Positions 3,352-21,173 of a stretch of 64,000 bases of DNA are shown here, piece after piece; within the stretch, counting starts at the first letter, position 1, and each line of letters opens with the position of its first letter. The position numbers were made by a program, and so were the translations under genes. The DNA lies in the NCBI GenBank assembly GCA_963578775.1, contig CAUZEG010000002.1:9423-73422 (forward strand). Reading direction: 5' to 3'. Below the pieces are notes generated by a model, which was not told where the DNA came from, ran no database searches, and worked only from the letters and a program-made list of their open reading frames with translations. The stretch is from Myxococcales bacterium. GTDB lineage: Bacteria > Myxococcota_A > UBA9042 > UBA3505.

Positions 3352-6300
3352 TCAATACCCAACGGTTCCGTAGATTTCATTAAGAGAGCGGAGGATTTCA
3401 AGGCTCTCAATCAGTTCCTTGAGTTGGGCCTCCAACTTGAGCTTGGGCTCGCCAATTGCCGCCTCCCAGCTCGTCTTCAAAGCGTTCGCCTTTTCCAGCA
3501 TCCGGTAGGCGACCTCAAATGGGGCGCGTTCACCGTACTCATTGGCGTACAGATAGTTGTTGCTCAAGGCCGCGTAGGTCTTTTGCCCAAACGGATCGTC
3601 GAACGTGATCTTATTTACACCGGGGTTCGAATCGAATTGGGAACCATTACCCTCGTAGGTGATGGCCATCGCGTCCGTAAAGGTCGGGTCGAATCCCGCT
3701 GGCAGGTAGGACAGGCCGTACACTGCTGCAAAGAGCTTGAACGAGAAGTCATCGATAGAGGGAGCAACAACCGGTCCAAGAGAATGGCTCTCTTCAAGGG
3801 CTTCTTCATGGCTCGAACCACCGATAACCGGCCGTGGCACGAACACCCCGTCCTGTTCCGCACCGGCGAATAACTCATACTCATCCGCGACGATACCACC
3901 CAGAACATTGGTCAACTCGATCTGGTAAAGGGTGTTGAAACCAATGGACGTTGCACCACGAACACCGAGTTCAGACACGAAGTCAGAGGTGAAGTAGGCG
4001 GTAGAGTCCGTAAGGGTAAGAAGCGACGCAACTTTTTCCCAGAAACTCCCGATCCATACCGCTTGCGTGAAGTCGTAATATCCACCGCTGGTATTGAACT
4101 GGGTGTAGGGGAACTTCCCTAATCCGACCGGAATATCAAGCTCACTACCCGGTTCGCCGGTGTCGAAGCTGAAGTTCTCATAGGTCCCAGTGTCATTATT
4201 ATATTGGTATGACCCCGGTGATGGACTGGAGATCAGTTCCGTCAGGTACTGGAAGGCGACTTCTGACGTCACACGTAACGTACGACCATCGTACGGTGCA
4301 TCTTTCCAGTTCGCGAACCAGAGGTAGTCCTTAAAGATGTGGTAATACAGGGCATAGTACTGACCGGCATGCCCAAGCTGAGTCATATAGCGGTCGAGAA
4401 TGCGGGAGAAATAGTAGCTGGCGCTGCCGTACCGACCAAATCCGTAACGCTCACGTTTGAAAGCGTCAAAGATGTAGTAGTACTGCAGGCTATTCATTGA
4501 GTGATAGCTCATCTCGCCGATATCCACCCCAGTGTCGAAGTAATAGCAACCCAGATTGCCACGGTACTCGTCGTAGCAGGCCCGGTACGGCACCTCGATA
4601 TAGGTGAAATCCAACTCATCACGGATGTAGTTACTGGCCATCTGGTGTTCATAGGTGACCTGTTCCCAGGGAACCGTCACTCGCGACAGATTCTCCTTCA
4701 CTCCGATAAAGTTCTCGAGATGACCAAATCCACTGCTGGTCGTACCCGCGTAACGCCACCAGGATGTGTCCTTTACGTACGCAAAGACATTCGGAGGATA
4801 GTTGTAGTAATCCGCTGCGTTCTCGACGTATTTCTCGAGTTGACTCGTGTCATGATAGACTTCGATCATCTCGCCATAGCCGGCCTTGATCGCCGCTCGG
4901 TCATATTTACCGAGGCCATGAATATCCGAGTTGAAACGGCCACCGTAGTCCATAACCGTGCTGTACTGATATTCCGTTCGGCGGGCGTCTCGCTCGCCTT
5001 CCGTCATATAGGACCGTGGTGCAAACTTTTTGATCGGCTCAATCACCGTTTCTGTATAGGCGGCAACAACGATGTTCCCATCGCTATCACTGCACGCAGA
5101 CTCGGTGCAGTATTCGCCCTCGCCACAATCGCCTGTCTGCGTACACGAGCGGGTCGTACCACATTGATTCGTGGCCGTATCGCAAGTAAGCCCAGCCACA
5201 CAGGAGCCATCACTTGCACAAGGGACCTCGTAATCGATAGGTCCTTCACAATAGCCCGTCTTTGTGTCTGTCACGTCGACACAGAAGCTTCCAGCGGAAC
5301 CTTCCGGGTCACCACAGCTAAGACCACTACTGCAGTCAGAGTCATTGATACATTGAACAAAGGAACAGGTTTCAGACCAACCCGGTGTTTCGCACCAGTT
5401 GTCGTTTTGGCATAACACGAGCTCCTTCTCACGAATATCGAAGTACTCATCCTTGAAGTTGAATATATCGTTGGATCCCGAGAAGTTGTGTCGTAACCCT
5501 ATCGTATGCCCAACTTCATGCTCAATGACGCCGCCATAGATATGTTGTTCAAGGGCAACGCGGAGGTCTTCACCTGACAGTCCTTGATCATCTTTGAGGG
5601 CCTTCGCCAGACCATAGATGGAGTCATCGATGAAATCGGCCATAAACAGGCAGGTGTTGTTCTTCGCGTTCGTCAACATGCGCATACGCTCATGCTCAGC
5701 CTTTACTGCACTCTGAGTACCCCAGGTAAGCGGGCTCACCTTTTTCAGGGCCTCTGCGTCCAACGCGGCGCCTGGCTCCAGCTGACCGCCAGACAATGCA
5801 ACCACAATCTCGTTGTTGATCATCATCTGTTCAATCTTCGTACCCTTGATGCGATTGAAACGGGCCTCCAGTTGCTCCTGTGTCGGGAAACCGCCCAACA
5901 CTTCACCGAGAAGTTGTTTCCGGTATTCCTCATCGGAATGGAAGCGCCACAGTTCTGGTGCCTCATGGGGCATCATCATCCGCATGGGTGCGGCCGGCTG
6001 CCTGCTGGTCAATGCCATTACCGCCGGGCTCGAAGCCGGTAACTTGTCCGTTGGACGCGTTGCTGGAGTAAATTCGCCTGGCATCTGAAGCCCGGCATGC
6101 ATGGTACCAATCTCGTTTTCCTCAAGGCTCTTCAGGAAATCCTTAACGTACTTACCCGAGATGGTGTCGTCGACAGATAGATCTCCATGAACCAGGTCCA
6201 TAAGATCGCGAGCCCACTGGCTATAGGTACGAAGTGGTGCACCATAGATATTCGCCGCTGCAAAATACAGCTCACCGGTCTGCGGATCCGCCGCCGACGG

Positions 6301-8685
6301 ACCATAACCGAGGGGGCTCGACATATGCGCTTCGTGAATATAGTACACGAGATTATAGCGAGCATCGCCGATCTTCTTCCGGCTATTCGGGTTGGCCGGG
6401 TCATCACCACAAGCATTGTGCGAATCACCGACGTCATCGGTCCAGGTGTACCGACAGTCATCGTACAGACCCCAGCTACAGTTCTTGTTGGAGTTAAAGG
6501 CCGCTTTATCGGCATCGGACCAGGAGTCCACATTACTACCATTATTCTTGTCGACCAGCTCATAGCCCGCATCGGTCCAATAGCCGGTAAACTGATTCCG
6601 GCAAAGCACGTAGGCCGGAGGAATGGAGTCCTTGATCGCCTCAACCTCGGCTAGATCTGCGGCCGTGATCTCGGGCATGGAACCCACGCAACGACCAAGG
6701 CCACCGGAATGGAAGCAGGTCACATCCTGGCGACCATTTCCATCCACCAACTTCACAGAATGCATACCGTTATAGCCGGCGTTGATGAATCCTGAGTCCT
6801 GGCCAAGGGCGAGTGCGTCCGAACGTCGGCTACCATTGATAACCACGTTCTGCGAACTATGGTCCGTCAACATATTCACGACACGAATTCCCTGATCTCC
6901 AGCAAGACCATCAGGCCCGGTCAAAAGGCTTGATTGGGCTTTCGCCAGAACACCACCACCATATACGAAGAGGTAGATGTTCGAAGTTTCAAAGACCACA
7001 TTGGTAAGCTCGGCACCGTCACCACCCTCCACGTGGGCCGAGATGGTGAACTTACCGGTATCGAATACCGCGTAATCCTCGTAGTTATTGCTGGGGTCAA
7101 ACTCTACACCAGCCGCAGCATCAATCCCGCCGATCTTGAAATCGACAGAAGACGTATTTGGATCCGCGTTCACGAAGCGAACCAGTGATTTGCCCGCGTG
7201 AACGTTGGATGGGGGATACTTGGCATCGTTGGTTACGATGGATTTCACACTATCACCGTCATTATAGACGATGACGGTACGGCCCTTGGGCTGCGGAACA
7301 TCCAGATCTACGACCTGGGCAAATGTCGCAATATCAGTACTACAGTCGGCGTCGGTGTCACAGAATCGTGTCAGCAACATACCGCCGCTCTCGGAATCCC
7401 GACGGTCCCAGTACAGCATCCAGGCGATGGTATCACTGAAGATATCATTCCATCCGTCCGCCATCTCGTAGGTCTCGTCCATCAGATACTCGGGGAAGTC
7501 TGCCGATAAATGGTAGATGATGGGTTTCACACCTCGACCTTCGTCAAAGCGTTGGCTCGGACGCTTCAGTCGACGACGCTTACATTCCCCACCTACAAAC
7601 CACTCTTCCTGGTAGCAGAACTGCTGCGCGTCGGTGTCGCAATCGGAGTCAACGTAACAGTCCGAAGCACCTTCAACGTCTTCAAAATTCCAGACCTGAC
7701 GCCAGAGATTCCAGCGATTGATCTTCTGGTCACGACCCGCATAGGTAAGCCCCGAATTCTCGGAGTAGGTGTACCGCTCGGTCATGAAAAAACCAAACTT
7801 CTCCTGATGGAAGGAGTTGTGCCATAGCTTCGCGTTATAGGTCGGAACTGGATCCACGCGCTTAAAGCTATAACGGGCCTTCACCACGCCACCGGCGCAG
7901 TCACCCGACGCCAGGGTATAGACACTGCAATAGCCGGAGGACTGGGGCTCCGCGAAGAACTTGACCACAAAGCTGATATAGTCCTCGGTTATCTCTGGCC
8001 GGTCCGGATTGTCCTCACCCTCTACTTCCTGGACAAAGTAGGGCACGCTATTTGTGGGCATACGACCAACTACGAACTCGAAGTCGTTGATCGCATTTTC
8101 GGACCAGTCCACTCGCATGGACTCCCGCTGATACCAGGGAACGTCGACTGAGTTTTCTTCAATCACATTGGACTGTTCACCCGTCTGCGCATTGTATTTT
8201 CGCTTTACATCGAAGTGCTTTTCGATCGTGAAGGCCACAATCGGCTGACCCACAAACATCTCCATGAAGTCGTTGTCGGGATTGCTATCCGTCATAGCCT
8301 TACGGTCCCAATATCTCCGAATCTGGCGTTTGTGGTAGTCCTTTTCCGCACCCTCAAGCGTCTCCGTAACCGGATACGCTACAAGGTGGTTTTCCTGCAC
8401 ATCCCATACGATCTTTGGGTTTGCACCAAAGGACATCTCACCAACGAAGGTAAAGGCTACGCCATAGGGTACCTCGGTAATGGTACGAACCATGTACCAC
8501 ATACCCTGGAGGTCCTTTTTGTTCACGATATTCGGTTGCGACCGATCAATATCACCAACATCTTCGGTGCAGCCAAATCCACCCGCTAGGCAGACAACAA
8601 GGATAAGAAAAAACGAACGAATTTTCTGAAGACTATTGTGGAACATTCCGTTCTCCTGATTTCCCGGTTTGGGATTCGAGTTCAA
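3352..8685 (-). CDS. Giant (1777 aa) secreted metzincin-type zinc metallopeptidase lipoprotein with a Cys-rich module inserted in the catalytic domain.
   Basis: ORF track. N-terminal lipobox LAGGFGC. HEVGHTIGLRHNF (HEXXHXXGXXH) encoded near 5477-5513. STVMDYGG (Met-turn candidate) near 4945-4968. Dense CxxxxC repeats lie between them. A paralog sits immediately downstream. Confidence 0.8.
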   Translation of the reverse strand: MNSNPKPGNQENGMFHNSLQKIRSFFLILVVCLAGGFGCTEDVGDIDRSQPNIVNKKDLQGMWYMVRTITEVPYGVAFTFVGEMSFGANPKIVWDVQENHLVAYPVTETLEGAEKDYHKRQIRRYWDRKAMTDSNPDNDFMEMFVGQPIVAFTIEKHFDVKRKYNAQTGEQSNVIEENSVDVPWYQRESMRVDWSENAINDFEFVVGRMPTNSVPYFVQEVEGEDNPDRPEITEDYISFVVKFFAEPQSSGYCSVYTLASGDCAGGVVKARYSFKRVDPVPTYNAKLWHNSFHQEKFGFFMTERYTYSENSGLTYAGRDQKINRWNLWRQVWNFEDVEGASDCYVDSDCDTDAQQFCYQEEWFVGGECKRRRLKRPSQRFDEGRGVKPIIYHLSADFPEYLMDETYEMADGWNDIFSDTIAWMLYWDRRDSESGGMLLTRFCDTDADCSTDIATFAQVVDLDVPQPKGRTVIVYNDGDSVKSIVTNDAKYPPSNVHAGKSLVRFVNADPNTSSVDFKIGGIDAAAGVEFDPSNNYEDYAVFDTGKFTISAHVEGGDGAELTNVVFETSNIYLFVYGGGVLAKAQSSLLTGPDGLAGDQGIRVVNMLTDHSSQNVVINGSRRSDALALGQDSGFINAGYNGMHSVKLVDGNGRQDVTCFHSGGLGRCVGSMPEITAADLAEVEAIKDSIPPAYVLCRNQFTGYWTDAGYELVDKNNGSNVDSWSDADKAAFNSNKNCSWGLYDDCRYTWTDDVGDSHNACGDDPANPNSRKKIGDARYNLVYYIHEAHMSSPLGYGPSAADPQTGELYFAAANIYGAPLRTYSQWARDLMDLVHGDLSVDDTISGKYVKDFLKSLEENEIGTMHAGLQMPGEFTPATRPTDKLPASSPAVMALTSRQPAAPMRMMMPHEAPELWRFHSDEEYRKQLLGEVLGGFPTQEQLEARFNRIKGTKIEQMMINNEIVVALSGGQLEPGAALDAEALKKVSPLTWGTQSAVKAEHERMRMLTNAKNNTCLFMADFIDDSIYGLAKALKDDQGLSGEDLRVALEQHIYGGVIEHEVGHTIGLRHNFSGSNDIFNFKDEYFDIREKELVLCQNDNWCETPGWSETCSFVQCINDSDCSSGLSCGDPEGSAGSFCVDVTDTKTGYCEGPIDYEVPCASDGSCVAGLTCDTATNQCGTTRSCTQTGDCGEGEYCTESACSDSDGNIVVAAYTETVIEPIKKFAPRSYMTEGERDARRTEYQYSTVMDYGGRFNSDIHGLGKYDRAAIKAGYGEMIEVYHDTSQLEKYVENAADYYNYPPNVFAYVKDTSWWRYAGTTSSGFGHLENFIGVKENLSRVTVPWEQVTYEHQMASNYIRDELDFTYIEVPYRACYDEYRGNLGCYYFDTGVDIGEMSYHSMNSLQYYYIFDAFKRERYGFGRYGSASYYFSRILDRYMTQLGHAGQYYALYYHIFKDYLWFANWKDAPYDGRTLRVTSEVAFQYLTELISSPSPGSYQYNNDTGTYENFSFDTGEPGSELDIPVGLGKFPYTQFNTSGGYYDFTQAVWIGSFWEKVASLLTLTDSTAYFTSDFVSELGVRGATSIGFNTLYQIELTNVLGGIVADEYELFAGAEQDGVFVPRPVIGGSSHEEALEESHSLGPVVAPSIDDFSFKLFAAVYGLSYLPAGFDPTFTDAMAITYEGNGSQFDSNPGVNKITFDDPFGQKTYAALSNNYLYANEYGERAPFEVAYRMLEKANALKTSWEAAIGEPKLKLEAQLKELIESLEILRSLNEIYGTVGY

Positions 8686-11583: not shown

Positions 11584-13218
11584 TCAGAAATCCCAGAAGA
11601 CATCGACACCATTCAATAGGATGGGCCCCACATCGGAATCCGCGCTCACCAGACCATCGCCTGGAAAAAATAGTACCGTCTTCGTTGCGATTGAGAACGT
11701 GTCGTGCAGACGATAATCAAGGCCCAGTCTGGCCTCCACACCATAGAATCCGCCCCCGCCCGGTGTATTTTTGCTGGTCATCGCCCAGGACCCCATCGCC
11801 GACAGATCAATGCCCAGGGCGTGGCGGCCCCGGAGAATATCAAAGCCCAGGGTCGGGCCTACGTACACGGTGTTCGTGGCGGCCCCGAACAGGTAACGAT
11901 AGAGCACCTCGTCAACGAAAAAGCTTGGATGGGCGATGAACTGTTCAAAGGTCTTATTCTGCGAATACTCGGTCTGCGTATTGTAGATTTCGGTCGATGG
12001 CGCCACTGTATTGCTCCCATCGAGCACCCCCACATACGTGCCTTCCGGTTCGCCCGTGGCAAAGCCCGTATCCAGTCGTGCGCGTATACGGCCTGTCGAA
12101 TAGGTGGCCCGGAGTGCACCGGCAAAGGCCTGCACATCGCGGGAAAGACCTTCGTCTGAAAAGGCCTGGGTCTGGGCAATGTCCCCAAGAATGGCTTGTA
12201 ATTCGAGACCGACCGCCAGGTGGTGGCCATCTGCGGGCCAGCCCTCAGCATGAAGGTAGAGTCCGGGATACCAGAGGTCCGCATTCCGTGGGATATAGGC
12301 AATGCAATCAAAACTCGTCTGGGGTCCGGTACCCGCTGCATCTTCGACACAGGCCCCGGGATCGAGAGCCTGATCGGATTGCCGGCCAGCACTCCGCATG
12401 CGGAGACGGACCGTCCAATCGAAGAGCCACCCATTGGCTAGTCGCGCGGCACGTCTTCGGTTTCGCTCCTCGAAGGGCGTACGCAACGCACCAGATAGTT
12501 CCACCAGAAACTCGCTCACATCATCCGTCTGATCGAGGTCATAAGGTTGTCCTGCAACAAACTGTCCCCGCTCGCTGGTGAACCCCTCTCCTGGCCGACG
12601 CCACGCGATACGAGTCCCCATATCGAATAGATCCGTACGAAGGTCGATGCCATCGACCAGGGTCTGCACATCGCAGTCGGAACATTCTCCATCGTTCTCC
12701 GACAAGCCCAGACCGAAGTGTTCCGGCATTCGGCCCATCCGCACCCAGAGGCGCGAGAAGGGTTCCCATGTCCCATATAGGTAGGGAACTCGAACACTGT
12801 CGCTGGGATGATCTCCGTCAATGCGTACAAGGGAATCGGGAGATTCCTGGCCATGAAAACCTATCCCTGTTCCCGCCTGGATGTTCCCAAATGCATCAAG
12901 CGCCATAGATACAGAAAAGGTGTCGGAGATATGAAATTCGGGGCGGTAGCGAAGTCTCATATCGCTTATCCAGCCCATACGCTCGACCCCAGCACCCGCC
13001 GATCCAAACCCGAGACTGTTACCACCCAGGCCATTGTCTACGAAGGTGTTTCGCGTGCGTATGGTACCGCTATGAACCACATACACCAGACCTCTCGGAA
13101 TATGTACATCCGTGGACTCGGCCGCCCCCGTATCAGCCCAGACAGGAGATTCCAGCACAGGAAACACCATTACCAGGAGGGACAGCACGACCAGGAATCG
13201 TAGGAACAAACTCTTCAC
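11584..13218 (-). CDS. Outer-membrane beta-barrel protein (hypothetical).
   Basis: Signal peptide MKSLFLRFLVVLSLLVMVFPVLESPVWA. C-terminal ...VDVFWDF, the aromatic terminal residue typical of OMPs. Confidence 0.5.
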   Translation of the reverse strand: MKSLFLRFLVVLSLLVMVFPVLESPVWADTGAAESTDVHIPRGLVYVVHSGTIRTRNTFVDNGLGGNSLGFGSAGAGVERMGWISDMRLRYRPEFHISDTFSVSMALDAFGNIQAGTGIGFHGQESPDSLVRIDGDHPSDSVRVPYLYGTWEPFSRLWVRMGRMPEHFGLGLSENDGECSDCDVQTLVDGIDLRTDLFDMGTRIAWRRPGEGFTSERGQFVAGQPYDLDQTDDVSEFLVELSGALRTPFEERNRRRAARLANGWLFDWTVRLRMRSAGRQSDQALDPGACVEDAAGTGPQTSFDCIAYIPRNADLWYPGLYLHAEGWPADGHHLAVGLELQAILGDIAQTQAFSDEGLSRDVQAFAGALRATYSTGRIRARLDTGFATGEPEGTYVGVLDGSNTVAPSTEIYNTQTEYSQNKTFEQFIAHPSFFVDEVLYRYLFGAATNTVYVGPTLGFDILRGRHALGIDLSAMGSWAMTSKNTPGGGGFYGVEARLGLDYRLHDTFSIATKTVLFFPGDGLVSADSDVGPILLNGVDVFWDF

Positions 13219-13416: not shown

Positions 13417-14178
13417 ATGGACAACAAAGAAAAACAATCTGAGACTTCTATGGCTTCCCGTACACGGCGCGACGGGACCACGAAACGAAAGCTTCCGGTC
13501 TTTCCGATCATTATCGCGGCCCTTATTGGGGTGATCGCGGCTCTTATCGTGGGCTTCAGCCTTCGTGGAAGTACCAAGAACATTGAAGTGGCTGACTTGA
13601 CTCGGGATGCGGACAGTTATCTTGGTGAACGCGTAAAGATCCAGGGAACGATCGCTGGCCACTGGACCGAAAAGAACTCTCGGGACATCTTCATTCAGCT
13701 ATCGGGAGAAACCGGCGAAGAGGTCGTATTCCATTACACAAAACCACTGCCGGATCCCTACCAGAAGAATCGTATCGCGATAGCGGAGGGAGTGTTCATC
13801 GACGGGATACGAATTGACCCCAAAAAGGTACAAGACGTCGAAAAGACGGGGCTGTTACTGGCCCAGGTCACCGGTATGCCAGAGGGAGACGCCATTGACC
13901 TGGTCTCCAACCCTACAGCCATCACGGCCTATGGAACATCGGTAACGCTTTCTAACGAGCGGAAGTTGTCCATCCCCAAGGATGCCTATGAGAAGGTCAA
14001 GACATTCACAGGGGGATCGGACACGTCTCAAACGCTGGCCGGTATCAGCTATACCCGCTTCATCGAAGGGCGGCGGCTTACCGTCAAATGCCCCTCCAAA
14101 TATGTTCGGGAAGGTGTGAGCCCGGAACAATACGAAGAGTACAAGGACAAATACCCCGAACACGTGCCCCAGAGTTAG
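13417..14178 (+). CDS. CcmE-like membrane-anchored OB-fold protein, a variant cytochrome c maturation heme chaperone homolog with a C-terminal extension.
   Basis: N-terminal TM helix LPVFPIIIAALIGVIAALIVGF. The segment LRGSTKNIEVADL...GERVKIQGTIAG...IFIQLSGETGEEVVFHYTKPLPDPYQKNRIAIAEGVF is alignable to E. coli CcmE (LRSNIDLF...IRLTGTVMPG...[36 protein letters not shown]). Sits directly upstream of ccmF. The canonical HxxxY is absent. Confidence 0.5.
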   Translation: MDNKEKQSETSMASRTRRDGTTKRKLPVFPIIIAALIGVIAALIVGFSLRGSTKNIEVADLTRDADSYLGERVKIQGTIAGHWTEKNSRDIFIQLSGETGEEVVFHYTKPLPDPYQKNRIAIAEGVFIDGIRIDPKKVQDVEKTGLLLAQVTGMPEGDAIDLVSNPTAITAYGTSVTLSNERKLSIPKDAYEKVKTFTGGSDTSQTLAGISYTRFIEGRRLTVKCPSKYVREGVSPEQYEEYKDKYPEHVPQS

Positions 14179-14189
14179 GACGCTAACCT

Positions 14190-17100
14190 ATGCATGTGTT
14201 TGGACAGGTATTGCTTGGTCTCGGATTTCTGGCTTCTCTGGCCTATGCTGGAACCGCCTTTCTAGGTGCCCGCTTTCGCCGTCAGAACCTCCTCGACGCG
14301 TCACGATACGGTTTGTACGCCCTGGCCGGAATGTTCTGGGGTATATCTCTGCTGCTATCCTACGCCTTTCTCACCCATGACTTTTCCAACACCTACGTTG
14401 CCGCGTACAGCGATCGGGGGATGAGTAATCTGTATCTTCTCTCCGCCTTCTGGGGAGGGGAAAAGGGTGCGCTGTTGCTATGGGTTACCTCCCTGACCAC
14501 ATTTTCGGCGATTTCGATCCACAGCAACCGACATAAGGACCCACGCTGGATTGGTACCACCACAGGGATCCTGCTCCTATGCATCGCCTTCTTTGAGATG
14601 CTGATGGTGTTTGAGTCGAACCCCTTTTCCACCTGGCTTACTTTCGGGGGGCCAGCCGATGGCCAGGGGATGAATCCGGTCCTGCAGAATGTGACGATGA
14701 TGATCCACCCGCCAAGTCTGCTGACGGGATTTATCTGTTTCACGATCCCATTTGCCTACGGATTGGGAGCACTGATCGTTGGTAAGCTCGATACAGAGTG
14801 GATTCGTGTAACCCGTGTCTGGACCATCATCTCGTGGCTATTCCTATCGGTGGGCCTCATCCTGGGTGGCTTATGGGCCTACCAGGAACAGGGTTGGGGC
14901 GGTTACTGGATGTGGGACCCGGTCGAGAACGCCGGATTGATACCATGGTTCACCGCGACCGCATTCTTGCATAGCGTGATGATCCAGGAACGCCGCGGCA
15001 TGTTGAAGCGTTGGAACGCGATCCTGCTTTGCCTCACATTTCTGCTGACGATCTTTGGGACGTTCCTTACCCGAAGTCAGTTGATTGCATCCATCCATGC
15101 CTTCGCGGATAGCAAACTCCCCTACTATTTCCTGTCGTATATGTTGGTCATCGCGACCGTCAGTTTTCTGGCCATCCGAAAACGATGGGACGCGTTGAAG
15201 AGTGAACATCGGATCGAGTCTTTCTGGTCCCGTGAGTCCTTCTTCATCTTAAACAATGTCATGCTGGTTTCCTGTTCGTTCATCGTGATCTACGGAACCC
15301 TGTTCCCGAAGATCAGCGCCTCGCCAGGATTTCGTCGCGTCGTCAACAACACATTCATCGACGGATACAACGTAACTATAGGGCGAATCCTCCCCAATAT
15401 GAGTCAACTGACACAATCCTCCGATCTGGGTCAGGACTTCTTCAACACCGTCATTCCACCCGTAGCGCTATGTCTTCTGTTCCTGTCGGCCGCTGGCCCG
15501 ATCATCGCCTGGCGCCGAGCCACGGTTACAAATTTCCGGAAGAACTTTGTCGCCCCTCTCTTATGGGCAATTATTCCAACGCTGGTAACGATTGGCTTTT
15601 TCGTAAACCGCACCTTTGAACAACTTACCTTCAAAGGCCTGTCCGAATCGGAAGCCTGGACAGCCCTATGGGCGGGGACCGGTCAGCTTGAAGTCTATGT
15701 GTATCTGACCTTTTACCTCTGTTATTTCGTCATCGCTTGCATCATAATGGAGTACATGAGGGCCATCGCCGTTCGTCGCCAGAGCACGGGAGGCTCCAGA
15801 CTCAAACACGCCCTTATACTCACCCTGAAGGCACGCCGGAGATTCGGCGGCTACATTGTGCATCTGGGGATGGTTCTATGTTTCTTCGCCTTTGCCGGAA
15901 CGGCGATGAAAACATCGTTCAAGAATAAGATGTTGCACCCTGGAGGTACCGTCACTCTGCATGACTATCGTGCAACGCTGGCCCGAATGGACTTCGAGTA
16001 TGAATCCGAAGGGAGGTTCCTGGCCACGAAAGCTACCGTAGTGGTCACACAGCGAAACGAACCCTTCAATCGTCGCATCATCCATAGTTTCTCCCGTGCT
16101 CTGGAAGCTAAAGGAATCGATCGGGCCGTCATTCGGGCGAAGGATGGGTTCGCCAAACTCCAGATCTATCTTCCCGATCCAGACCAGAGGCATCGGCTTC
16201 TGGCGGCCGGCCTTATCAGGACGGAATTCGAATCCAATTTTGATGAACTCGAAAAAGACATCCGACCCGATGCCGATCCGCCGGTCTTTGCCCACCGCTA
16301 TCGGTATAAACATGAGAAGGCCCTGGAGCTGGCACGACTACCGGATGGTCGGCCCGCGTATATGTTCTATGTGCGCGAGTTAAAAGCCCGGCTGGCACAG
16401 CTCGAATCCCTCGGCATCAAAGGCCGTGTGGATATGTCGAACCCGGATGTGTTGAACGTCGACTTCGAAACCCTGGAGCATATGCAGCGCTACGAGGCCG
16501 ATGTGATGCCTCTTGCAGAGCACCTTCCAGATTCCTACAGCATTCGTGAAGGGCTTGCCTCATTCCGGCTCCTGATCGCCGACAATGCGGCCAATATCAT
16601 GGAAGGATCTTCGCCGAAGAAGTCCGACACCAAGCTCGGCGATTTGGGCGAAAGCCCTACTCTCCCCACTCTGTTTGCAGCCGCCGAAAAGACACTCGAT
16701 GCGTTGAACCCGAATATTGACTGGGCCACAGGATTCGAGGCAAAAAACGCCCTTGGTATCGACCGGGCCAAACGGCTGAAGAAAACCAGTCAGCTTCTCA
16801 ACCGACTGGAATACCAGGCTCTCATCCTACCCGTCGATCGTTTCGAATCGCAATCCAAGGCCGAGAACCAGGCCTGGACCGAACTGAGCCGTGCGCTCCG
16901 CAACCGTAGTCTCCCATGGATACGTGTCATACTCGTGGGGCCCGGTGCCGAATCCGCGCAGACTCTGCTGGGAAATATGGGGATACGGACCTATATTGCT
17001 CGAACCGCCCAGGAGTTCGAAGCGGAATTACGGGCCGCGACCGTCAACATCATCCCGGTGGAGATCATACCTACAGGCATCGGAAGCGTGATGATCCCCG

Positions 17101-18263
17101 AGGTACGAGTCTACGAGAAGATTGGCTCGTCCCAGAGTGCGGAGACCATGACAACCGAGATCGCAGTGGAGTCCCATCTGCTCTGGGACGTCTATATATC
17201 GATGCGTCCGTCGCCGGATTATCGCGGCCTGAGCATGGACGGCTTCTTGAACCCGCTGGTTTCATTTCTGTGGCTGGGAGCGATCATTATGGTTTTGGGG
17301 GCTTCCATAGCCGTTCTACCCAACTCGGCGGTCATGTTTCTCTGGCGCCGACGAGACGAAGAAAGCACGGCTGGACCAACCCACTCGTCCAGTTCGGGAA
17401 GGAGCCGTATAAGCGTATTACCCTGGTTGGCGATTCTAGCGGTCGGCCTGTTCATGTTCACGCAGCTGGCCTTCGCCAGTCCGGCGGCACAGGATTCAGC
17501 TACACCCACACAACAACTGTCAGCATCCGATCCGGTCGATGTTCCTCCATCGCGGCTGGAGGTGATGTCTGAGTACCTGTTCTGCCCGGATCAACAGGTC
17601 GGGTCCTGGATGGTTCACCCGGACCGGACCTTAAATCGTTGTCCCACGGCGGAAGGGCGTAATGTGCGCCATATCTTGCAGACGATCCTTGACGAAAACC
17701 AGGCCTGGGATGTGCACACGACAAAGGGCCGATTTCTGGTATTGGAAAATCTGATAAAAATCGACCGATCGACCCCCGGCGGCGGTCAGATCGACACCTT
17801 ATTACGAGTTCCCCAGGCAAAGTTCAACAGCATCTGGAACCGTACCAAATGTCTCTGTGGCTGCGCACATATCCTCATGCATTGTGGTGCCGAATGTGGA
17901 CCAGCAGGCCATCGCTGGCGACCACGGTTTCGCCAGATGTTGACGGCCGGCTACACCACCCAGGACGTTCGTAGGGATTATGCAGAATACTATGGGGCGG
18001 ATGCCGATGGCTTTGTGAGCCAGGGTGAGATCGACAAGCACAAAAAGGGGACCGGGCCGCCCATCGCTCGGATCCTGTTATTCCTGGTTGTCGGAGTCGC
18101 TGCTGTGGTGCTGGTGCTCAGCAATCGATTCGCATCCACTTCGAGAAAAAAGAAGTCGAATGCAGCTCTGGCTCCCTTGCCCGGCGATGAGCCAAAAAGC
18201 GAAGGTGAAGAGCTTGGACTCATCGACGACCTTCTCAATGATATTGATGACCCCTTAAGCTGA
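14190..18263 (+). CDS. ccmF: Cytochrome c-type biogenesis protein CcmF (heme lyase, WWD domain). It has a greatly expanded periplasmic region and a fused C-terminal CcmH-like domain plus a TM anchor.
   Basis: WGGYWMWDPVENAGLIPWF (WWD motif). Multi-TM N-terminal half typical of CcmF/NrfE. The C-terminal part, ...RFRQMLTAGYTTQDVRRDYAEYYGADADGFV, then the TM segment ARILLFLVVGVAAVVLVL, resembles CcmH (EGKSxxEIVDYMVARYGDFV + TM). Total 1357 aa versus about 650 for typical CcmF. Confidence 0.75.
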   Translation: MHVFGQVLLGLGFLASLAYAGTAFLGARFRRQNLLDASRYGLYALAGMFWGISLLLSYAFLTHDFSNTYVAAYSDRGMSNLYLLSAFWGGEKGALLLWVTSLTTFSAISIHSNRHKDPRWIGTTTGILLLCIAFFEMLMVFESNPFSTWLTFGGPADGQGMNPVLQNVTMMIHPPSLLTGFICFTIPFAYGLGALIVGKLDTEWIRVTRVWTIISWLFLSVGLILGGLWAYQEQGWGGYWMWDPVENAGLIPWFTATAFLHSVMIQERRGMLKRWNAILLCLTFLLTIFGTFLTRSQLIASIHAFADSKLPYYFLSYMLVIATVSFLAIRKRWDALKSEHRIESFWSRESFFILNNVMLVSCSFIVIYGTLFPKISASPGFRRVVNNTFIDGYNVTIGRILPNMSQLTQSSDLGQDFFNTVIPPVALCLLFLSAAGPIIAWRRATVTNFRKNFVAPLLWAIIPTLVTIGFFVNRTFEQLTFKGLSESEAWTALWAGTGQLEVYVYLTFYLCYFVIACIIMEYMRAIAVRRQSTGGSRLKHALILTLKARRRFGGYIVHLGMVLCFFAFAGTAMKTSFKNKMLHPGGTVTLHDYRATLARMDFEYESEGRFLATKATVVVTQRNEPFNRRIIHSFSRALEAKGIDRAVIRAKDGFAKLQIYLPDPDQRHRLLAAGLIRTEFESNFDELEKDIRPDADPPVFAHRYRYKHEKALELARLPDGRPAYMFYVRELKARLAQLESLGIKGRVDMSNPDVLNVDFETLEHMQRYEADVMPLAEHLPDSYSIREGLASFRLLIADNAANIMEGSSPKKSDTKLGDLGESPTLPTLFAAAEKTLDALNPNIDWATGFEAKNALGIDRAKRLKKTSQLLNRLEYQALILPVDRFESQSKAENQAWTELSRALRNRSLPWIRVILVGPGAESAQTLLGNMGIRTYIARTAQEFEAELRAATVNIIPVEIIPTGIGSVMIPEVRVYEKIGSSQSAETMTTEIAVESHLLWDVYISMRPSPDYRGLSMDGFLNPLVSFLWLGAIIMVLGASIAVLPNSAVMFLWRRRDEESTAGPTHSSSSGRSRISVLPWLAILAVGLFMFTQLAFASPAAQDSATPTQQLSASDPVDVPPSRLEVMSEYLFCPDQQVGSWMVHPDRTLNRCPTAEGRNVRHILQTILDENQAWDVHTTKGRFLVLENLIKIDRSTPGGGQIDTLLRVPQAKFNSIWNRTKCLCGCAHILMHCGAECGPAGHRWRPRFRQMLTAGYTTQDVRRDYAEYYGADADGFVSQGEIDKHKKGTGPPIARILLFLVVGVAAVVLVLSNRFASTSRKKKSNAALAPLPGDEPKSEGEELGLIDDLLNDIDDPLS

Positions 18264-19458
18264 TATTTCGGCTACGCACCGAGACCATCAGGAATAAGAC
18301 GACCAACAGGGCCCATGGAATAGACCCCCGCGGGCCCCGCTTACATCCACCCGAGTCACCGCCAGGCCCCGTTGGCCCGGTCCATGGCGTCTGGTCCAGG
18401 AGTCCTGCCTCGCCGCCATAATGGTACCAGTCGAGGTCGCAGGCCACGGACTCCTCGTCGGTAGACGCACAGGTCGAGCCAGGGCCTCCTAGTTGCTTCA
18501 TAGAGAAGAGCGGAGTGTCGTCGGAACGCACAACGTCGAATGGACCGTTCAACCTCAACACACCATTCAATTGGCAGACATATACATAGGCCCCCACGGC
18601 CTGGAGGCACGTCCAATCCACTGTCGTGCCTTGTTGAATGGAGAAGGCGCTGCCGTCGTCCTGAACCAGAGCACTCTTCCCATCCGCGATGAGCACAAGA
18701 TTCGCCCCCAATTCGACCGGTCCCATAAGATTCTCGAAGACCTCGGTGGATGGGAGCCATTCATCATTTTCGGCCAACTCCGGATCCGAGCGTACCCGGA
18801 CTAGAATTCGTCCTTCAGTCGTACTCGCGACCAACCAGGCCGTACCGTCCTCTTCAATATGGCGTACACTCAAATAGCTCCAATCTCCGCCCAGGCTAGA
18901 ACTCGACGCAGACCAGCCCTCACTCGGCAGGCCCGTAGCGGGCAACGAGGCCTGCCATACCTGGGGTGTCGGTCGAGCCCCGGCTACCACGACCACTCCA
19001 GGGGCCCCGGCTTGAAGCACCAATGTGTCGGGTGCAAAGCCCAGCGCATCCGCATCACCCGGGAATATAGTCTCGATTCGTACCAGCCAATCCGAGCCAA
19101 AGCTGACGAGTGCACCCGAGTTCTCGTCTCCTCCAAGCACATAAAACCGGCTCTGCACCCAACCAACGTCTCGGGGATAACCAAGCTCTGCGGGCATCTC
19201 GACCTCGTCAAAGGTACAACCGCCGTCGCTAGACGCGCGGACAACGCCCCCACCCAACGACACCAGCTCAAGCCCATTCGACGACACTGCGAATTGCGCC
19301 ATTTCATAACCGCCCCAACGAGACGGACAACCATATCGGTAACTGCCATCCGCATTCGCATGCGCCAGGCCAATATTCAGCCGAATGAGATGGGGATAGG
19401 ACTCGTCCACAACCTGGTTGGCACGGCTATCCTCATTCGAATCCAACAAGATTTCCAA
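18235..19458 (-). CDS. BNR/Asp-box repeat beta-propeller protein with a C-terminal Cys + hydrophobic + Arg tail (MYXO-CTERM-like sorting signal). The true N-terminus probably lies upstream of the track's TTG start, to about 19575.
   Basis: Asp-box motifs SSDGGCTF, EEDGTAW and QDDGSAF. C-terminal ...GGDSGGCKRGPRGSIPWALLVVLFLMVSVRSR. The in-frame upstream segment encodes a signal-peptide-like LRRRALNAILGTIFCLWTTFVFAHGAAPAP with no ATG/GTG/TTG. Confidence 0.55.
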   Translation of the reverse strand: MEILLDSNEDSRANQVVDESYPHLIRLNIGLAHANADGSYRYGCPSRWGGYEMAQFAVSSNGLELVSLGGGVVRASSDGGCTFDEVEMPAELGYPRDVGWVQSRFYVLGGDENSGALVSFGSDWLVRIETIFPGDADALGFAPDTLVLQAGAPGVVVVAGARPTPQVWQASLPATGLPSEGWSASSSSLGGDWSYLSVRHIEEDGTAWLVASTTEGRILVRVRSDPELAENDEWLPSTEVFENLMGPVELGANLVLIADGKSALVQDDGSAFSIQQGTTVDWTCLQAVGAYVYVCQLNGVLRLNGPFDVVRSDDTPLFSMKQLGGPGSTCASTDEESVACDLDWYHYGGEAGLLDQTPWTGPTGPGGDSGGCKRGPRGSIPWALLVVLFLMVSVRSRNISLRGHQYH

Positions 19459-19529: not shown

Positions 19530-21173
19530 TCAGGGCTCGTCTCCGAAGGCAAGCCCGCAGGACTCGAGATCCGAATTACAGGTTCCATCCAGTATATATG
19601 GCTTCATGCATTGGTAGAACCCCTCGTATTCCTCACTGCACGTTGCAAATACGCAGGTCTGTGGATTGTCACAGGTGGCAAAACAGGCGGACAGTTCTCC
19701 CAGCTCCGTGGGGCAAACCGGTGCTGCGCATGTTGCCATCGGCAAGGTCAGGCATTGTGCACAGTCCAGGCCGGAGTTGATGACGCATCCAAGGAAACAG
19801 GTGGAATCCTCACAACTGACAATACAACTATCCGCGCCCGTACAGACGGCCAGGTCCTCGTAAAACGGAAGGGCAACCGCCAGGTAGGCCAGGCACATCT
19901 CATCCCGGGTTCCATCGCCCCAGGAGACCAGCTTGGGCTCCTGCTGCTCCCCATTGACGACCGGCTGATTCTCTACACTATTGTCATAGGTACATGACAA
20001 ACGAACCACATCGTTGAGTTCGGTATCGAGATACGAGTCGTCAGGAAATGAATAGGCCTGCTGCCAGTTGAAATCCCAATCCGGGATATTAACCAGGCAA
20101 TGGCTTTGGTCGCCTCGAAGAAGATCGATACGAATTTCACTTCCCAGGGTGTGCATATGCGGGGTCACCGCGATAATGCGTCCGCCAGCTGGTACGGGGA
20201 AGTCTCGAACCTCCTCCCAGCTTGCTTCATGGGGCGGAATCGAGATGCCCAGATGAGGATACGGTAGGATCTCGACCAGATATTCAGGGGTCGTTCCGCT
20301 GGGCAGGGTCCAAAAACCAACCTGGGTCCGATCCGCCGGAGCCGGGCCTTCAAAGTTCAACACATTGAAATGCATCTGCATGACAATGCGGGATCCGGCC
20401 GGAATGCGAATGGCCATATTGTCAGGAAATACCTTTGGGACTGAGCCCGGAACCCAGCCACCAAGTGTCTCACCTGTACCTACGATGGGACTTCCAAAAC
20501 AGGTATAACCCGCACCTTCTTCCGCGGCATCCAGCTGTTCCATGGCAGCAATATCGTAGTCGGGAACAAGATATAGCAATACATGGTGCACCAGCTCGGC
20601 TTGGTCCGGAAAGACCCAGGAACTGGTCAAGAACGTATCTTCTTCAAAGGTATACGGCAGCGGTAGACAGCGATAATCGTCCGGTTTGTTTACATCGGGA
20701 GTGTAATCTACGCCCGCATCCAACATGAGGTCCGGCTCCCCAGTCGGTGCCGTGGGGCTGATGTCCGGGGCCACATAGTCGTCTGGGTTTCCCTCGAGCG
20801 TACCATTCTCCGCCCAGGTCGCCAGAGCATTGAGGTCTTCATCCGACAGGCCACGATGATCCGCGAGCGGATAGCAATCGTCGGCGGGCATCCATGGCGG
20901 CATTCTACCGGCCGAAGCGCTAGCACTCACAAGGTTCGCCATATCTCGGACTACTTCATAACTCGTCAGAGCGAACGGACCGATGCTGCCTTCCTGGTGA
21001 CAAGTCGTGCAATTTTTTTCCATAAGGGCGCGAATCGCCCCGTGGTAGGTGGGTCCGGTTGCCGTTGCATCGGTGGTTGGCTCCTCGGTTGAGGACTTCG
21101 TGCACGACGTCAATGTCGAGAGCATCGCTATCAGAACGATCACGACAGATAAAGCATGTGTTTTCTGATTCAT
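19530..21173 (-). CDS. Lipoprotein fusing an N-terminal c-type cytochrome domain (CxxCH) to a PHM/DBH-like type-2 copper monooxygenase domain, with a C-terminal Cys-rich repeat tail.
   Basis: Lipobox LSTLTSC. Heme motif NCTTCHQEG. CuH-like VHHVLLY and MQMHF. CuM-like VTPHMHTLG and DEMCLAYL, compared with PHM HHMLLFGC / HTHxLGK / EMC. C-terminal CxxxC-rich tail. Confidence 0.6.
   Translation of the reverse strand: MNQKTHALSVVIVLIAMLSTLTSCTKSSTEEPTTDATATGPTYHGAIRALMEKNCTTCHQEGSIGPFALTSYEVVRDMANLVSASASAGRMPPWMPADDCYPLADHRGLSDEDLNALATWAENGTLEGNPDDYVAPDISPTAPTGEPDLMLDAGVDYTPDVNKPDDYRCLPLPYTFEEDTFLTSSWVFPDQAELVHHVLLYLVPDYDIAAMEQLDAAEEGAGYTCFGSPIVGTGETLGGWVPGSVPKVFPDNMAIRIPAGSRIVMQMHFNVLNFEGPAPADRTQVGFWTLPSGTTPEYLVEILPYPHLGISIPPHEASWEEVRDFPVPAGGRIIAVTPHMHTLGSEIRIDLLRGDQSHCLVNIPDWDFNWQQAYSFPDDSYLDTELNDVVRLSCTYDNSVENQPVVNGEQQEPKLVSWGDGTRDEMCLAYLAVALPFYEDLAVCTGADSCIVSCEDSTCFLGCVINSGLDCAQCLTLPMATCAAPVCPTELGELSACFATCDNPQTCVFATCSEEYEGFYQCMKPYILDGTCNSDLESCGLAFGDEP

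Follow-up and report, generated by a model that had tools for sequence, protein, structure and literature searches.

Organization of the locus

The 64-kb stretch of DNA analyzed here (hereafter the window) carries on its forward strand a pair of genes for cytochrome c maturation, ccmE and ccmF, the coordinates and features of which are given in Table 1. The ccmE open reading frame begins with ATG and encodes a membrane-anchored CcmE of 253 aa followed by a stop codon, and the start codon of an 85%-identical ortholog aligns with position 13417. A single TM segment is seen both as a hydropathy peak (aa 31-49) and as an AlphaFold helix (aa 29-49), and a basic cytoplasmic stretch, RTRRDGTTKRK, lies just before it. 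Strands beta1-beta5 of the periplasmic OB fold that follow include the LPDPY...R...G block common to all CcmE. The codons of the two residues of interest in the CPSKY motif occupy nt 14089-14091 (Cys225) and nt 14101-14103 (Tyr229). The C-terminal tail is kept in relatives, reading REGVSPEQYEEYKDKYPEHVPQS in the window protein and REDMSKEEYEDYLRKNPDHIEPRS in the relative P0003.

Table 1. Features of the ccmE-ccmF locus, in positions of the window.
Feature	Position	Strand	Evidence
ccmE gene, predicted Cys-type (CPSKY, System I*), with internal insertion	13417..14178	+	ORF, Pfam CcmE, family alignment, ortholog start
N-terminal signal-anchor TM helix (aa 29-49)	13501..13563	+	hydropathy, AlphaFold helix
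Periplasmic OB-fold strands beta1-beta5 (aa 54-133)	13576..13815	+	Pfam PF03100, AlphaFold, Foldseek
Lineage-specific 83-aa insertion (aa 133-215) in the beta5-beta6 hairpin	13813..14061	+	alignment gaps, spacing, model
Last OB strand beta6 (aa 216-224, IEGRRLTVK), pairs with beta5	14062..14088	+	AlphaFold, alignment, Pfam coverage
CPSKY motif, Cys225 and Tyr229	14089..14103	+	alignment, family profile, published signature
Flexible acidic/aromatic C-terminal tail (aa 230-253)	14104..14175	+	relatives' alignment
ccmF (1357 aa)	14190..18263	+	Pfam, NCBIfam, 6zmq match, clade alignment

The ccmF gene starts 11 nt downstream of ccmE, and the two are probably co-transcribed. Its product, the partner heme lyase, is a CcmF/NrfE-family protein according to both Pfam and NCBIfam; the core aligns with the CcmF of T. 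thermophilus (6ZMQ; E=4.5e-59) and the WWD motif is intact (WGGYWMWDPVENAGLIPW…FLHS). The same arrangement, with ccmF directly downstream of ccmE, is found in the ortholog, in P0003 and P0004 (both on short contigs), and in 22 of the 38 clade genomes. The window CcmF has an enlarged periplasmic domain, and its C-terminus is extended by a Cys-rich segment, after which comes a TM helix. An expansion of ~165 aa over a 652-aa CcmF is clade-wide; when compared with 14 clade CcmFs, those of the window and of L008, the genome locus of the ortholog, are alone in having a further ~175 aa at aa ~790-930. Matches of the C-terminal extension to Pfam CcmH were weak (E=0.14-0.2 in the window), as they were in the 3 of 7 clade members that matched (best E=0.023), and a profile search of the PDB with this extension returned nothing relevant to CcmH.

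A stand-alone ccmH was not found within the 64-kb window, nor were ccmA, ccmB, ccmC, or ccmD among its 36 scanned long ORFs (at least 150 aa). Separation of ccmE from the remaining ccm genes is not unusual in this clade: at locus L014, for example, a typical CcmE of 174 aa (Pfam score of 75.9 bits) is encoded without any ccm neighbor. Further, the gene at 19530-21173 specifies a protein whose N-terminal part is a c-type cytochrome domain (CXXCH), so that the organism has clients for cytochrome c maturation. No promoter-like site or Rfam family was detected around ccmE, and the one terminator-like site near the gene, on the minus strand, is no more than shuffled sequences give.

Assignment to the Cys-type CcmE family

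The Pfam CcmE profile (PF03100) matched the native protein over aa 57-130 (profile positions 6-80 of 99; E=1.3e-4) with a score of 22.7 bits against a curated cutoff (gathering threshold) of 24.6 bits. The ortholog scored 25.5 bits, above that cutoff, and when aa 128-215 were spliced out of the window protein the score was 27.7 bits and the coverage extended to profile positions 6-97 of 99. The OB core is divergent, as is evident from the 22.7 bits of the native protein versus the 75.9 bits of a typical clade member, and the NCBIfam CcmE match was faint. Searches of the PDB by phmmer with either the native or the spliced protein gave marginal matches to CcmE (E=0.3-1.2), and a family profile was therefore needed. 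Built from 22 normal-length relatives and searched against solved structures, this profile recovered the CcmE of E. coli (1SR3 and 8CE8 chain E; E ~3e-16, with 2.6e-16 given for E. coli), of Shewanella (1J6Q; E = 6e-16), and of D. vulgaris (2KCT; E = 9e-12). Entry 2KCT is the D. vulgaris structure of a CcmE of the System I* type. That the gene encodes a CcmE homolog, as had been proposed from the letters of the sequence in a first-pass annotation, is thus borne out by the family profile, by Pfam, and by the adjacency of ccmF here and in relatives.

The OB region can be aligned with that of the Shewanella CcmE up to LPDPYQKNRIAIAEGVF, which pairs with its Shewanella counterpart; hydropathy, this alignment, and PF03100 agree with the first-pass annotation on the TM anchor and on the extent of the alignable OB region. 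The residues right after LPDPYQKNRIAIAEGVF include no His or Cys. Among these residues, LLAQVTGMPEG, which is indeed present, had been taken as the counterpart of E. coli LAKHDENY, whereas the family profile puts TVKCPSKY there: it aligns ltVKCPSkY onto E. coli VLAKHDENY, with the Cys on His130 and the Tyr on Tyr134. In the window protein this motif is part of RRLTVKCPSKYV. It comes directly after the last barrel strand (…RRLTVKCPSKY…), as it does in ~200 ordinary relatives, and the nonamer LTVKCPSKY is an invariant signature of the ordinary 140-200-aa CcmE of uncultured Myxococcota. In an alignment of 26 CcmE sequences, V223, K224, C225, P226, S227, and Y229 are invariant, as are G77, P112, D113, R119, and G125. 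The earlier choice of the CPSKY Cys and Tyr as the candidate heme-binding motif agrees with this invariance.

Cys225 is the predicted site of covalent heme attachment, equivalent to His130 of E. coli, and Tyr229 would correspond to Tyr134. The heme-attachment position is therefore a Cys and not the His of the canonical HxxxY, and at the level of sequence the window protein shows every feature by which the Cys-type CcmE family is recognized. CcmE of System I* occur in Desulfovibrio, other delta-proteobacteria, Chloroflexi, and archaea. The replacement of His by Cys in CcmE defines System I*, which was first noted in archaea and Desulfovibrio, and the majority of Cys-type CcmEs, mostly from delta-proteobacteria, carry CPSKY (Stevens et al., 2011; PMC3601427). 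The absence of CcmH belonged to the original description of System I* and is no longer considered defining; about a third of the organisms with a Cys-type CcmE also have CcmH (PMC3601427). In M. acetivorans (Methanosarcina acetivorans), heme attachment depends on the Cys of CXXXY (PMC9084895). We infer from family membership that the window CcmE likewise binds heme covalently. The gene is in all probability a Cys-type (System I*, CPSKY) CcmE of uncultured marine Myxococcota, the sole departure of which from its family would be an insertion in a hairpin.

Distribution and conservation of the insertion

Only two proteins came out of a word-indexed search: that of the window (P0001, with its start called at Met12) and an 85%-identical ortholog (P0002) encoded by RS415, a 'Myxococcales bacterium' MAG of Red Sea origin. 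An exhaustive search with phmmer (HMMER) of 1.84 billion representative proteins gave 28 hits. Three giant hits (P0012, P0018, and P0023), which are highly repetitive RTX-like or repeat proteins, were rejected as spurious. Nearly all of the other hits are 131-199 aa in length and are matched in two stretches, ~14-133 and ~209-251 of the window protein, and all non-spurious relatives close the OB domain with …[LI]TVKCPS[KR]Y…. Such relatives include P0003 (43% identity), which reads LPDPFKEGRTAIVEGELRENAKIEASRLTVKCPSKYKREDMSKEEYEDYLRKNPDHIEPRS and has no insert, and the second-closest relative, P0004, a protein of 186 aa from JGI marine metagenomes (43% identity). The ~83 extra residues (aa 133-215) are confined to the window protein and P0002 and form gap columns in 24 of the 26 aligned sequences, while aa 216-253, comprising the last strand, the motif, and the tail, are colinear with all other aligned family members. 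The first-pass annotation had described CPSKY as displaced into a C-terminal extension of 95 aa; the matches in two blocks show instead an internal insertion of 83 aa, and the motif looks distant in the linear sequence because this insertion lies in the hairpin that precedes it.

Larger surveys gave the same picture. A scan of 185,579 species genomes (GTDB) for [LI]TVKCPS[KR]Y identified 38 CcmE loci, almost all from MAGs of uncultured Myxococcota. Counted from PDx[FY] to the Cys, the spacing amounts to 29-37 aa for 37 of them; the one exception, with 113 aa, is the RS415 ortholog L008, and the window protein has 113 aa as well. A profile search of 5.8 billion proteins gave 214 hits, and among the best 120 of these the length is 100-206 aa with the exception of the two insertion bearers (242 and 250 aa); those of the best 120 that are named by their source are called CcmE.

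Nei-Gojobori comparison of the window gene with its 85%-identical ortholog indicates strong constraint on the OB core (aa 51-127; identity 94%, dN 0.034, dS 1.771, dN/dS 0.019) and on beta6 together with the motif and tail (aa 216-253; identity 95%, dN 0.034, dS 1.06, dN/dS 0.032). For the insert (aa 128-215; identity 74%, dN 0.197) and for its first part (aa 128-180; identity 85%, dN 0.105), dS is saturated and dN/dS is not computable. Conservation of amino acids in the face of saturated synonymous change argues that the insert, with the exception of a variable linker at ~aa 193-206, is also under purifying selection. It is present in frame in independent assemblies from two lineages (TARA/ENA, the NCBI MAG RS415, and a Logan SRA assembly). 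The insert had no match in Pfam, no homologs beyond the ortholog cluster were found in the exhaustive search of 1.84 billion proteins, and scanning metagenomes with peptides of the insert led only to the contig of this same ortholog.

The borders of the insert carry a quasi-repeat, FIDGIR / FIEGRR, which leaves an uncertainty of a few residues in where the boundary falls. This quasi-repeat may be what is left of an insertion that involved duplication. An internal duplication of the OB fold, an idea that arose from FIDGIR/FIEGRR and from LPDPYQK/IPKDAYEK, was rejected, since hhalign of the insert against the CcmE profile returned a probability of 0.14% and the model described below places helices, and not an OB fold, in the insert. 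A different insert of ~25 aa with four Cys is carried by P0004 at the same hairpin, which indicates that the beta5-beta6 site tolerates insertions.

Structural model

A model of the full-length protein was generated with AlphaFold2 from the alignment of 26 sequences and has a mean pLDDT of 80. Barrel strands are modelled at aa 54-57, 72-84, 91-96, 102-107, and 120-133. In this model the sixth strand of the barrel is supplied by aa 210-223, a long strand that pairs with 120-133 and runs straight into CPSKY. Both strands of the hairpin are lengthened to ~14 residues, forming a stalk that bears the insert at its tip. When the model was compared with the PDB by Foldseek, CcmE structures were among the top hits, beside generic OB folds, with a target TM-score of 0.64 and an rmsd of 2.3 A for 1j6q/1lm0; 8ce8_E was also recovered. 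The insert itself is modelled as a small alpha/beta module composed of helices 141-152 and 156-164, short strands within 170-185, and helix 190-198. It should be noted that the pLDDT of 61-88 for the insert is obtained in the full-length model only and that this part of the model rests on two insert-bearing sequences. Predicted alone (AlphaFold, two sequences), aa 120-223 reach a pLDDT of 32, and the modelled fold of the insert is for this reason tentative.

Alternative readings of the gene

The first-pass annotation had raised the possibility of a paralog that does not bind heme, and a related account would be a decaying gene that merely keeps its OB fold. Either is highly unlikely. The heme-binding motif is invariant, purifying selection on the core and motif is strong (dN/dS of 0.02-0.03), and ccmE forms a tight and conserved pair with a ccmF that is intact; these observations speak against both accounts, even though the native protein falls below the Pfam threshold, has a divergent OB core, and contains a large insertion. 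The lack of ccmABCD nearby, within the 64-kb window, also counts in their favor. However, other ccmE of Myxococcota, such as that of L014, are also found away from the remaining ccm genes, and the nearby gene at 19530-21173 encodes a protein with a CXXCH cytochrome domain.

An extremely unlikely alternative is a third variant of CcmE, in which a complete OB fold devoid of the heme-binding residue would be followed by a new C-terminal domain of ~95 aa to which CxxxY has been relocated, as the first-pass annotation had suggested. Matches to relatives of normal length lie on either side of aa 133-215, and LTVKCPSKY together with the tail is colinear with the C-terminus of every relative. What speaks for such a variant is the linear sequence, in which no His or Cys occurs after LPDPYQKNRIAIAEGVF, CPSKY is found ~95 aa further on, and IDGIRIDPKKV loosely mimics the genuine last strand, IEGRRLTVKCPSKYV. 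Nevertheless, position 97 of the 99 in the Pfam profile is reached only after aa 128-215 are spliced out, and the AlphaFold barrel is completed by aa 210-223 paired with 120-133. Moreover, the second (Cys) variant has CPSKY as its published signature (PMC3601427), so that the supposed third variant corresponds to a Cys-type CcmE already described, with its motif in the normal structural position.

That the mature protein lacks the 83-aa segment, this being an artefact of assembly or frameshift or an intein-like or other excised element, is scarcely credible. The segment has no homologs anywhere searched and is bordered by a quasi-repeat, but independent assemblies of two lineages, 85% identical in protein sequence, carry it in the same frame, its amino acids are conserved despite saturated synonymous change, intein junction residues are lacking (the insert starts IDPK and ends YTRF, followed by IEG), and the full-length model predicts that it is folded.

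Comparison with known CcmE proteins

Earlier work on the CcmE of System I* includes that of Allen et al. (2006) and of Goddard et al. (2010). As a Cys-type CcmE, the window protein resembles its System I* counterparts in having a TM anchor and an OB barrel, CPSKY after the last strand with the Tyr retained, a similar C-terminal tail, and linkage of its gene to ccmF. It differs from them in the 83-aa insertion at the hairpin tip, which is absent from the relatives of 131-199 aa and from the profile hits of 100-206 aa, in a more divergent OB core, and in a partner CcmF of twice the normal length. With the HxxxY-type CcmE of E. coli and Shewanella (1SR3, 1J6Q, and 8CE8 chain E) it shares the fold and topology (Foldseek target TM-score of 0.64), the LPD(L/P)(F/Y) block, and the position of the heme-attachment residue, whereas it has Cys instead of the heme-binding His and, in addition, the insertion. 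P0004 shares IEGxxLTVKCPSKY, a ccmF directly downstream, and extra residues at the same hairpin; its insert, however, is only ~25 aa long, includes four Cys (CQSDGRCSGTLGPCKTTKDC), and shows no sequence relationship to that of the window protein. The motif is thus a known Cys-type motif in its normal place, and the feature not described before is the hairpin insertion.

Putative roles in heme delivery

Judging from what is established for the family, CcmC, together with CcmABD encoded elsewhere, would load heme covalently onto Cys225, with Tyr229 serving as the presumed axial heme ligand. Holo-CcmE would then pass the heme on to CcmF, whose gene starts 11 nt downstream, and CcmF would attach it to CXXCH apocytochromes. 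A strand of ~14 residues spans roughly 45 A, so that the insert should lie about this far from Cys225, and at such a separation it is unlikely to touch the heme or to join in heme chemistry. Additionally, His and Cys are absent from it and the one Met it has is not shared by the ortholog, leaving it with no conserved His, Cys, or Met. As to its role, the insert would most likely act as a scaffold or a protein-protein contact specific to this lineage.

A speculative candidate for its partner is the CcmF periplasmic domain, which is larger by ~175 aa in the two lineages that bear the insert. A more elaborate scenario would have the 83-aa module and the ~175-aa CcmF segment arise together as a dedicated interface for CcmE-CcmF docking or for handling apocytochromes, which, along with a putative CcmH-like module fused to the C-terminus of CcmF, would make the pair a compacted, two-gene sub-variant of the System I* synthetase. 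We consider this scenario unlikely. The co-occurrence of the insert and the CcmF expansion represents one evolutionary lineage and therefore proves nothing.

Implications

The assignment as a Cys-type CcmE removes an apparent anomaly, in that the window protein would not represent a third type of heme attachment by CcmE. The beta5-beta6 hairpin accepts insertions, which may be useful for the engineering or tagging of CcmE; the PDx[FY]-to-Cys spacing across it, usually 29-37 aa, exceeds this by ~25 aa in one relative and reaches 113 aa in the window protein. For uncultured marine Myxococcota, the picture is one of dispersed ccm genes and of heavily decorated ccmE-ccmF pairs with extra periplasmic modules. 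If these modules interact, they would offer a natural handle on the poorly understood handover of heme from holo-CcmE to CcmF.

Enlargement and C-terminal extension of CcmF

At 1357 aa, the CcmF encoded in the window (14190-18263, + strand) is roughly double the normal size. Its periplasmic domain (aa ~574-1023), which lies C-terminal to the TM helix carrying His558, is greatly enlarged. Relative to a 652-aa reference CcmF, an expansion of ~165 aa is common to the Myxococcota relatives, and a further ~175 aa (aa ~790-930), without detectable homologs, occurs only in the window and in L008, the locus of its 85%-identical CcmE ortholog. The CcmE insertion, too, is carried by these two lineages.

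Additionally, CcmF is fused to a C-terminal extension that is kept in one subclade of relatives (loci L008, L011, L015, L016, L019, L020, L023, and L030) and that includes a periplasmic Cys-rich domain (…TKCLCGCAHILMHCGAECGPAGHRWRPRFRQMLTAGY…) between two TM helices. The topology of the extension is CcmH-like, and the Pfam CcmH model matched it weakly, both in the window (E=0.14-0.2) and in 3 of 7 subclade members (best E=0.023). A PDB profile search with the extension did not find CcmH, and the extensions of relatives lack CxxC. A CcmF-CcmH fusion is possible.

Features of the ccmEF region (window coordinates)
Feature	Window position	Strand	Residues	Remarks
Giant secreted protein	3352-8685	-	1777 aa	
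Conserved hypothetical	11584-13218	-	544 aa	Signal peptide; flanks ccmEF
Quasi-repeat FIDGIR	13798-13815			TTC ATC GAC GGG ATA CGA; CcmE insertion border
Quasi-repeat FIEGRR	14062-14079			TTC ATC GAA GGG CGG CGG; other CcmE insertion border
CcmF TM helix			aa 555-573	Carries His558
CcmF TM helix			aa 1076-1094	Ahead of extension's Cys-rich domain
CcmF C-terminal extension	17520-18260	+	aa 1111-1357	Fused to CcmF
CcmF second TM helix of extension			aa 1292-1310	Followed by acidic tail
Conserved hypothetical	18235-19458	-	407 aa	C-terminal TM helix; flanks ccmEF
Heme c/Cu-monooxygenase-like protein	19530-21173	-	547 aa	

Insertions in the CcmE hairpin

The β5-β6 hairpin of CcmE is an insertion hot spot. 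Its length varies by 5-8 aa among other clade members, and the quasi-repeat bordering the window insertion, also found in the ortholog, may have been left by a duplicative insertion, or it may simply represent two paired stalk strands. A related marine CcmE of 186 aa (P0004; L006 415-975 and L007 414-974) has an insert of ~25 aa in the same hairpin; this insert differs from that of the window and holds four cysteines (CQSDGRCSGTLGPCKTTKDC).

Genomic neighborhood of ccmEF

The 547-aa neighbor is an unusual heme c/Cu-monooxygenase-like fusion. Its N-terminus bears a c-type cytochrome motif, CTTCH, and matched Cytochrome_CBB3 and Cytochrom_C weakly; a C-terminal copper type II monooxygenase domain (PF03712, E=1e-8) is also present, and the C-terminus is rich in Cys. 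In the contigs of the ortholog its gene keeps synteny with ccmEF. Synteny with the ortholog extends to both flanking hypotheticals, neither of which matched Pfam, and to the gene for the 1777-aa protein (ortholog contig L001), in which Pfam recognized no more than a short Met-zincin (DUF4953) stretch and, below its cutoff, DUF4397. The ORF for the 407-aa hypothetical (18235-19458) is convergent with ccmF and shares 29 nt with its 3' end.

In another Myxococcota MAG (L014, 3837-8480), a normal CPSKY CcmE of 174 aa stands alone, its gene preceded by one for a 1357-aa M23-peptidase-domain protein. That this locus contains no ccm neighbors shows that ccm genes are dispersed in Myxococcota.
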